Source: Escherichia phage slur16. From it: DNA of 64,000 nt. This document shows, piece by piece, positions 63,309 to 63,963 of this stretch. Made by a program: the position numbers and the translations under genes. The first letter of the stretch is position 1, and every line of letters begins with the position of its first letter. The DNA lies in sequence record NC_028248.1; one strand, 5' to 3'. The notes below the pieces were generated by a model. That model saw nothing but the letters and a program-made list of their open reading frames with translations. It searched no databases and had not been told where the DNA came from.

Positions 63309-63407
63309 GGTGCTAGGTGATGGAATCGAACCACCTATGTATTCAACGACTACCTCGTCTATTTTCAGGATTAAAAATCCTCGCCCTTGCCAAAGGGCTT
63401 ACCTAGC
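63309..63407 (-). tRNA. atypical 99-nt tRNA-like gene (anticodon candidate UUU, oversized ~30-nt variable region)
   Basis: Perfect 7-bp acceptor GCTAGGT/ACCTAGC, D-arm GCCC-TTTGGCAA-GGGC, T-arm GGTGG-TTCGATT-CCATC; anticodon arm only 4 bp (AGGA/TCCT) around loop TTTTTAA; 30 nt between anticodon and T arms; 3' end ACC-U, so CCA not fully encoded. Confidence 0.45.
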
Positions 63408-63505
63408 TCAGTATGTTGACCATGTTGCTAGTCGGCGATGACGACTGTAACATTTGATAATCCGGTTCTGCTTCCGGCTTTCGCTTAATTACAAGGTCAA
63501 CAATA

Positions 63506-63596: not shown

Positions 63597-63710
63597 TTTA
63601 TAAACAATACTGATAATGACACTGATTTTCGAGCAGTTAGTGACTAGTATAAACGACGATAAATATCAATGCCATTATCTGTATGATTTATGCATTTAAA
63701 ACTATAAATT

Positions 63711-63934: not shown

Positions 63935-63963
63935 ATATTACACTGTTAAGCAAAGTTTGTCAA
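63935..63963 (-). promoter_or_regulatory. sigma70-like promoter upstream of the tRNA cluster
   Basis: Minus strand: -35 TTGACA (63963..63958), 17-nt spacer, -10 TAATAT (63940..63935); ~55 nt upstream of tRNA-Arg. Confidence 0.5.

Follow-up and report, generated by a model that had tools for sequence, protein, structure and literature searches.

Extra arms between the anticodon and T arms are familiar from class II tRNAs (Ser, Leu and Tyr), in which the variable arm is ~13-21 nt long with 1-2 unpaired nucleotides. There is also precedent for unusual RNAs in phage tRNA clusters; species 1 and species 2 of T4 (rnaC and rnaD) are small stable RNAs, partly tRNA-like, that are encoded in the T4 tRNA cluster and are co-transcribed and co-processed with it. 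With regard to charging, the identity set of E. coli LysRS consists of U34, U35, U36 and A73, and class II LysRS approaches its tRNA from the variable-region side. Phage tRNA genes have lately been recast as counter-defence against tRNA-cutting nucleases of the host. The PARIS system attacks the anticodon stem of tRNA-Lys, where AriB recognises the anticodon stem-loop of the host tRNA-Lys and cuts between residues 40 and 41, and phage T5 escapes by means of a variant tRNA-Lys of its own (PMC11464382).

The stretch of DNA analysed here (the window, 64,000 nt of Escherichia phage slur16, record NC_028248.1) comes from an rV5-like coliphage of the genus Vequintavirus and carries, on the minus strand of its last kilobase, a tRNA cluster in the order Arg, Tyr, Ser, X, Thr, Met, Pro. 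The element X, between tRNA-Ser and tRNA-Thr, was called by ARAGORN along with the six ordinary tRNAs around it, at coordinates of exactly 63407-63309 (99 nt as called) and under the label 'tRNA-??? (atcc)', that is, without an amino-acid identity; ARAGORN found no tRNA-Lys other than X for this phage in the window. The Rfam tRNA model recovers X with E = 2e-5 (35.5 bits against a gathering score of 29), with ~26 nt inserted in the variable region relative to the model. A sequence-only reading of this DNA had proposed a 99-nt tRNA-like gene in an otherwise ordinary tRNA cluster, with a perfect 7-bp acceptor stem, good D and T arms, 30 nt between the anticodon and T arms and a 4-bp anticodon stem around a UUU-containing loop. 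ARAGORN, Rfam, the MFE fold and the sequence itself bear out this description, to which we add the strand (minus), omitted from that reading.

Over the kilobase around X, Escherichia phage slur12 matches the window at 100% identity and many rV5-like Vequintavirus phages do so at 98-99%. Full-length X, identical or nearly so, is present in 121 phage records and in metagenome contigs as well, under public labels that conflict with one another (tRNA-Lys, tRNA-OTHER, tRNA-TERM, pseudo, '???' and hypothetical protein) or, most often, under no label; the rV5 genome paper gives six tRNAs only and omits X (PMC3606486). X is probably part of one cluster transcript because a sigma-70-like promoter lies just upstream of tRNA-Arg (Table 1), and this putative promoter is likely the start of that transcript, although the promoter scan returned three sites in total, which is the chance expectation, so that the site is plausible only. 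Eighteen records labelled 'Campylobacter phage' (MG0656xx; C12, C14, C15, A12a and others) also match the X query; over the cluster or X, those among the matches listed share 98-100% identity with rV5-like coliphages, a pattern that suggests mislabelling or contamination.

Table 1. Component parts of X and the putative promoter of its cluster, in window coordinates.
Feature	Position	Strand	Evidence or remark
Whole tRNA-like RNA X	63309..63407	-	ARAGORN; Rfam tRNA 35.5 bits; family covariance model 105.6 bits
Acceptor stem, 5' strand GCUAGGU	63401..63407	-	Pairs with 63312-63318; compensatory changes in 5/7 pairs across family
A8 A9	63399-63400	-	Just before D arm
D arm GCCC-UUUGGCAA-GGGC	63383..63398	-	3/4 stem pairs covary
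Anticodon-like arm, 15 nt, AGGA-U-UUUUA-A-UCCU	63367..63381	-	4-bp stem covaries; loop clade-specific
Variable region, 5' flank GAAAAUAG (family GAAAA)	63359..63366	-	Columns invariant or nearly so in alignment
Variable-arm hairpin ACGA-GGUAG-UCGU	63346..63358	-	ACGG-GCUAG-CCGU in Av-05 (compensatory)
Variable region, 3' flank UGAAUACAUA (family AAUACAUA)	63336..63345	-	Block invariant in 27/27 aligned sequences
T arm GGUGG-UUCGAUU-CCAUC	63319..63335	-	Stem covaries
Acceptor stem, 3' strand ACCUAGC, discriminator A (63311) and CC (63310-63309)	63309..63318	-	Sequence
Putative sigma-70-like promoter TTGACA-17-TAATAT	63935..63963	-	Upstream of tRNA-Arg; consensus scan, 10/12 matches

The MFE fold of X is an acceptable cloverleaf (-34.2 kcal/mol, z = -3.66; 0/200 shuffles fold as well). 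The 5' part of the RNA reads GCUAGGU AA GCCC UUUGGCAA GGGC G AGGA UUUUUAA UCCU G AAAAUAG and the 3' part ACGA GGUAG UCGU UGAAUACAUA GGUGG UUCGAUU CCAUC ACCUAGC A CC. All seven pairs of the acceptor stem (GCUAGGU/ACCUAGC) are perfect, and the base after CC is U, so that the encoded 3' end is CCU and CCA is not encoded. An alternative form of the D arm, with 6 bp in the stem and 4 nt in the loop, is the one predicted by the MFE fold and RNAalifold; the 4/8 and 6/4 forms are indistinguishable by covariation since U14, U15, A20 and A21 never vary. The anticodon arm, AGGA-UUUUUAA-UCCU when drawn with a 4-bp stem, has alternative folds of 5 bp with 5 nt or 6 bp with 3 nt in the loop, and is flanked by an invariant G at 63382 and another at 63366. 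Nucleotides 30-40 of X are GAUUUUUAAUC. Counted from the G that follows the anticodon arm up to the T stem, the variable region is 31 nt long; if that G is left out, it is 30 nt.

Homologues of X were collected by BLAST and pattern scans, giving a family of 31 distinct sequences of 99-110 nt, mostly unannotated, from Vequintavirinae (Vequintavirus, Avunavirus, Seunavirus, Mydovirus and Henunavirus), Stephanstirmvirinae (Justusliebigvirus), one N4-like Schitoviridae phage, and viral and metagenome contigs. The family spans at least three phage lineages and >200 sequenced genomes, and every copy sits inside a tRNA cluster. A covariance model (R1) built from 27 of the 31 sequences scores members at 81-121 bits (105.6 for the window copy) and ordinary tRNAs at <= 29 bits, and finds a single copy of X in the window. 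No member was found in GTDB representative genomes, where 35 pattern hits were all ordinary tRNAs at <= 29 bits, and 5,426 E. coli genomes gave no match, so that derivation of X from a host or a prophage is unsupported. The window copy has all of the family's hallmarks, namely the R1 score, A8, U14-U16, A20-A21, the GAAAA and AAUACAUA flanks and a location within a tRNA cluster. X is the rV5-clade member of a conserved phage family of tRNA-shaped non-coding RNAs, and the family is apparently undescribed so far, literature searches having found no description of X or its relatives. In the N4-like member, Salmonella phage UTK0002, X directly follows an unannotated gene that resembles a class II tRNA-Ser(UGA) (L008, ~1413-1498), and X together with a downstream motif, CTGCATCTA-TGGGGATGTGA, resembles the Henunavirus locus; this resemblance suggests that the X block of UTK0002 moved horizontally between phage families.

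In the alignment of 27 family members, 540/540 stem cells form standard pairs and compensatory changes are found in 11 of the 20 pairs, with a covariation score of 0.450 as compared with 0.174 in shuffles and <= 0.109 when the pairing partners are slid. RNAalifold independently gives the same cloverleaf, with the 6-bp form of the D stem and its 4-nt loop. Judged by this alignment, the cloverleaf fold of the family is proven by covariation. The tertiary structure is also represented: D-loop G19 changes to U in exactly the 10 sequences in which T-loop C56 changes to A, so the elbow pair G19:C56 is preserved as U:A and the RNA therefore folds into the L-shape of tRNA. Other positions hardly vary. 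A8 (U8 in tRNAs) and U14 (A14 in tRNAs) are invariant, as are U14-U16 and A20-A21, and both G's bordering the anticodon arm, GAAAA, AAUACAUA and the T loop are invariant or nearly so; the AAUAC of the 3' variable-region flank is retained even in the most distant members. The hairpin between the flanks is present in all members, at the same site, with wholly different sequences, and comes in three forms: with a GC-rich stem, with a short stem and a GAACUAACAGUA loop that is conserved, or as the 4-bp/5-nt stub of rV5 and Av-05. The relatives' hairpins are longer than that of the window and unrelated to it. We considered pairing of the two flanks with each other (AUGU/ACAU), which is possible in some type 1 members only and is not conserved.

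The oversized variable region with its conserved flanks is found in every member of the family, while a UUU loop together with A73 is found in the rV5 clade only; the long variable region is therefore ancestral and the Lys-like loop derived. At the 3' end, U73 followed by an encoded CCA is found in most members. It is replaced by A73-CC-U in the rV5 clade and by U- or C-ACA in Av-05; outside these two clades the exceptions are two Stephanstirmvirinae-type variants ending in U-UCA and U-CCC. These comparisons overturn one suggestion of the sequence-only reading, a Lys-like tRNA that had acquired an insertion, and they also refute the prospect that related phages would have an ordinary 76-nt tRNA at this site, as the relatives carry versions of 107-110 nt. 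Its further suggestion of a non-canonical tRNA or a tRNA-derived regulatory RNA was in the right neighbourhood, leaving its interpretation partly supported overall.

Selection on X within the rV5-like phages was gauged by aligning the whole cluster from divergent rV5-like contigs and counting differences from the window in each region. Against the two most divergent contigs, X differs at 3/99 and 4/99 positions (3-4%), tRNA-Thr, Met, Pro, Arg and Tyr at 0-2 positions each (of ~76) and tRNA-Ser at 10-11/91, and the two long spacers have 18-20 differences per ~100, a divergence about five-fold that of X. Furthermore, the changes in X keep its pairing: A66 to G opposite U7, a T-stem G-U to G-C, and ACGA/UCGU to ACGG/CCGU. 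On these counts, X in rV5-like phages is under strong purifying selection. Because X is as conserved as the tRNAs and its changes maintain pairing, assembly error is ruled out and a decaying pseudogene, which had also been entertained from the sequence, is strongly disfavoured.

The long spacers on the same strand have structures of their own. The 98-nt spacer between tRNA-Ser and X (63408-63505) folds with z = -2.6; its closing helix, UUGUUGACC/GGUCAACA, becomes GGAUCA/UGAUCC and GAUCAUG/CAUGAUU in divergent rV5-like contigs, and its core hairpins, CCGG-AAGCAGAA-CCGG and GUCG-UCAUCGC-CGAC, are conserved. This spacer probably represents a further structured RNA. Between tRNA-Tyr and tRNA-Ser, the spacer (63597-63710) forms a long imperfect hairpin (z = -4.2; 0/200 shuffles fold as well) with compensatory changes in one divergent contig, L022, where GGCAUUGAU/AUCAGUGUC becomes GGUAUUGAU/AUCAGUACC, and may be a processing site or a small RNA. 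In Seunavirus and Avunavirus, X is followed directly by a second unannotated tRNA-like element of ~170 nt (L001, ~2621-2790; L006, ~1615-1790), which is absent from the window. This element consists of a 5' GUGCAU-UAGCUCAG, a 6-bp stem with a conserved CUGAUCA loop, an insertion of ~100 nt and a 3' AUGCAAC, and its acceptor-like helix covaries (GUGCAU/AUGCA versus GUGUAU/AUACAC). Kissing between the X loop and the CUGAUCA loop was considered and rejected, as CUGAUCA is constant while the X loop changes.

The part of X that does change is its decoding end. In 31/31 members the anticodon arm is 15-16 nt long, whereas that of a canonical tRNA is 17 nt, and its loop is specific to the clade: AUCAA in Henunavirus, Justusliebigvirus, the N4-like phage and several contigs, where it is invariant though the bodies are only ~70% identical; C-N-K-CCA in Seunavirus and Mydovirus; UUAUA in Av-05; and UUUUA in the rV5-like phages. 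The anticodon is consequently not conserved, with UUU, UAU, UCA, UCC and GCC at equivalent positions among orthologues, and most clades are without U33 (A33 or C33 instead); the window copy has U33 only under the 7-nt loop reading. As a canonical tRNA, X scores above the RF00005 gathering threshold and has the 7-bp acceptor stem, the D arm, the T arm with its T-loop and the G19:C56 elbow pair; it lacks a 17-nt anticodon arm with U33, residue 26, U8 and A14, and its orthologues do not share an anticodon. The Seunavirus and Mydovirus orthologues match no Rfam model at E <= 0.01.

The window copy is the most tRNA-like member of the family. The 4-bp stem with a 7-nt loop gives it U32-U33-UUU-A37-A38, and its nucleotides 30-40 (GAUUUUUAAUC) are those of E. 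coli tRNA-Lys (GACUUUUAAUC, verified in all 5,426 genomes) except for C32U. With A73 as the discriminator, all of the LysRS identity nucleotides (U34-U36 and A73) are present in its sequence. Av-05, from the sister clade, combines UAU with U73 or C73 on a body almost identical to the rV5 form, a combination that, to our knowledge, fits no synthetase. In addition, relatives that have a normal tRNA-Lys(UUU) still carry X. Given that the loop copies that of the host tRNA-Lys here but differs in relatives, we consider X more likely to be a tRNA mimic than an ordinary decoding tRNA.

Two specific decoding schemes were examined and set aside. The UCA loop of the copy in Erwinia phage Hena1, annotated 'tRNA-TERM', could be taken for an opal suppressor; we rejected efficient suppression, as Hena1 uses TGA freely (the stop codon of 30/68 long ORFs, or 44%, compared with 13% of 61 in the window) and the window copy has no UCA. 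Likewise, the four-base anticodon 'atcc' proposed by ARAGORN needs a stem composed entirely of A and U as well as A at position 33, and was rejected; AUCC in the window is the 3' strand of a covarying stem, and its occurrence in the Seunavirus loop is a coincidence.

We favor the possibility that X is a functional tRNA-shaped RNA that acts as a tRNA mimic in phage-host conflict over tRNA and is not a routine Lys decoder, and our analysis gives this scenario about an even chance of being right. Transcription would start at the promoter ahead of tRNA-Arg and take in all seven genes of the cluster, and X would be excised in the manner of a tRNA, by RNase P at the 5' end and exonucleases at the 3' end, with the CCA-adding enzyme optional. 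In the folded, L-shaped product the elbow and acceptor end would be normal, the anticodon arm would be short and the extra arm would lie between two A-rich strands that are conserved. By analogy, X would be bound by some protein that recognises tRNAs, for instance serving as decoy or competitor where a PrrC- or PARIS-type nuclease targets tRNA-Lys. Consistent with this idea, X copies host tRNA-Lys(UUU) in its loop and the lower part of its anticodon stem, and it has the Lys-type discriminator, A73. The conflict context is provided by Henunavirus, which encodes a CCA-adding enzyme, a PNK-like ATPase and an Rnl1-like ligase.

Some observations run counter to a mimic. Three features of the relatives are gone from the rV5 form, namely the encoded CCA, U73 and the conserved loop of the variable arm, and for that reason its role may differ from theirs. 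If the invariant G/G is counted as 27:43, the anticodon arm of X becomes 17 nt long and lacks residue 26 alone. The search for a partner protein beside the cluster identified none; the neighbouring ORFs are without a Pfam hit and match only PHROGs of unknown function, tail-fibre or Rz-like spanin type. Moreover, Escherichia phage V18 is viable without X. A natural deletion in this phage (L017, 1442-1538) has removed tRNA-Ser and both spacers and left tRNA-Tyr, in its 5' part, joined to the 3' part of X; judging by this deletion, X, tRNA-Tyr and tRNA-Ser are dispensable in V18.

The repair genes of relatives merit a separate description. Hena1, a Vequintavirinae relative, has a tRNA-repair kit (L086, 9592-13855 and 39592-41641) made up of a CCA-adding enzyme, a second nucleotidyltransferase, a PNK-like ATPase, an Rnl1-like RNA ligase and a phosphoesterase. 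Homologues of the CCA enzyme were found in Seunavirus, Mydovirus, Avunavirus and Septuagintavirus, and rV5-like phages were not evident among the hits. A link between a phage CCA-adding enzyme and the missing CCA was considered and is not clean, in that Av-05 has the enzyme and its X is without CCA.

The same loop can be accounted for if X is a working but structurally unusual tRNA-Lys(UUU) that would be charged by LysRS via U34-U36 and A73, would read AAA and AAG, and would resist nucleases by virtue of its altered anticodon stem and extra arm, as T5 tRNA-Lys does PARIS. We regard this as the main rival and a serious one, though less likely than the mimic. The canonical-looking 7-nt loop UUUUUAA (U33, UUU, A37, A38) and A73 are what a real tRNA-Lys would need, and they count against a mimic to that extent, as does the match to E. 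coli tRNA-Lys over nucleotides 30-40, with C32U the one exception; however, U32-A38 and U31-A39 can close this loop to 3-5 nt, as in the MFE fold, the stack from D stem to loop is one layer short (G/G plus 4 pairs versus 26:44 plus 5 pairs) and A8/U14 stand in place of U8/A14. A73 here against U73 in other clades has the look of a concerted switch, but in Av-05, the sister clade, almost the same body bears UAU and either U73 or C73. The cluster has no other tRNA-Lys and several public records annotate X as tRNA-Lys, yet X is retained by relatives that possess a normal tRNA-Lys, and it does not encode CCA although six/six of its neighbouring tRNAs do. Strong purifying selection and the T5/PARIS precedent would fit a decoder, whereas the 31-nt variable region, on the approach side of class II LysRS, may hinder charging.

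A distinctly less probable scenario is that X has no trans-acting role and is instead a processing signal, a form of 'punctuation' at which RNase P and exonucleases would mature the cluster transcript and release the neighbouring structured spacers. X is always found within tRNA clusters, beside conserved structured spacers, and its best-conserved parts are the acceptor stem, elbow and T arm, which RNase P recognises. Such punctuation leaves several features unexplained: GAAAA and AAUACAUA, the single-stranded flanks, are invariant; each clade has an invariant loop of its own (AUCAA in members that are just ~70% identical); and U73-CCA is conserved in most clades. There are also ordinary tRNAs on both sides of X already.

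It is very improbable that in the rV5 clade X is a neutral relic or a tRNA pseudogene in decay: the loss of the encoded CCA, U73 and the relatives' long variable-arm loop, the complete loss of X in V18 and the pseudo-tRNA label in some records could be read in this way, but X diverges by 3-4% against 18-20% in adjacent spacers, substitutions in it keep pairing, it is conserved like the neighbouring tRNAs and every stem covaries across genera. We give practically no credence to an assembly artefact or chance cloverleaf, in view of identical or near-identical copies in 121 independent phage records and metagenome contigs and a covariance-model score far above that of ordinary tRNAs.

Returning to the mimic, we tentatively extend it to the family as a whole, which may be a class of phage tRNA mimics with a constant L-shaped scaffold and an exchangeable anticodon-like loop, a decoy or off-ribosome aminoacyl carrier that can be retargeted. 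Seunavirus and Mydovirus have a Gly-like loop (UCC/GCC, with U73), the rV5-likes a Lys-like one (UUU, with A73), and Henunavirus and Justusliebigvirus one with UCA. The scaffold would soak up tRNA-directed immune nucleases or carry an aminoacyl group away from the ribosome, and loop and discriminator would be retargeted as host defences change, the rest of the molecule staying fixed. If X proves to be a decoy or a nuclease-proof substitute, it would represent a new RNA-based anti-defence strategy and would explain why this element is found in many coliphages that are candidates for therapy. At the very least, X should not be counted as a normal tRNA-Lys when tRNA genes are tallied or codon usage is analysed for phages that bear it.

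It is worthwhile to set X beside the systems that it most resembles. Bacterial tRNA-Sec (RF01852) shares with the X family a long extra arm and the possible 6-bp D stem with 4-nt loop, and for the 'type 1' relatives, which have a UCA-containing loop, it is the best Rfam model (39-40 bits; gathering score 47). The family differs from it in having 7/5 rather than 8/5 acceptor/T geometry, U73 or A73 rather than G73, and A33 in place of U33; a tRNA-Sec reading of the relatives was rejected on the geometry, the sub-threshold score, the discriminator and the free use of TGA as a stop codon in Hena1. The window copy has UUU instead of UCA and gave no tRNA-Sec hit in Rfam. YrlA (RF02553) resembles X as a non-decoding RNA with a tRNA elbow and an acceptor-like stem, whereas X has no Ro-binding stem and, in most clades, ends in a discriminator and CCA like a true tRNA. 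Rfam gave no YrlA match over X, the sole weak YrlA hit in the region covering tRNA-Pro and tRNA-Met. With T4 species 1 and species 2, X would share the character of a small stable RNA co-processed with tRNAs; X is a complete cloverleaf. In the phage database X showed no sequence similarity to T4, its matches being confined to Vequintavirinae, Stephanstirmvirinae and one N4-like phage.

Class II tRNAs have the same cloverleaf, extra hairpin between anticodon and T arms, normal T loop and G18/G19 elbow contact as X, and genuine examples, tRNA-Ser and tRNA-Tyr, adjoin it in the cluster. The variable region of the X family is 31-42 nt long, with 7-10 conserved unpaired nucleotides on each side of the hairpin, and that of class II tRNAs is shorter; the family also has A8/U14 for U8/A14, an anticodon arm of 15-16 nt and a loop that is not conserved, and ordinary class II tRNAs score <= 28 bits on the family model as opposed to 81-121 for members. 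The tRNA-Lys of T5 is similar to X in its tRNA-Lys(UUU) anticodon loop, its changed anticodon stem and its place in the tRNA cluster of a lytic coliphage. It is, however, a decoder of ordinary size, in contrast to X with its shortened anticodon stack, 31-nt variable region, A8/U14 and 3' end without an encoded CCA, and, unlike T5 tRNA-Lys, the orthologues of X are without a Lys loop. Thus X appears to be of a known kind insofar as tRNA-like RNAs and phage tRNAs in counter-defence both have precedent, and what appears to be new is the constant scaffold with its A-rich strands, short anticodon arm and clade-specific loop.
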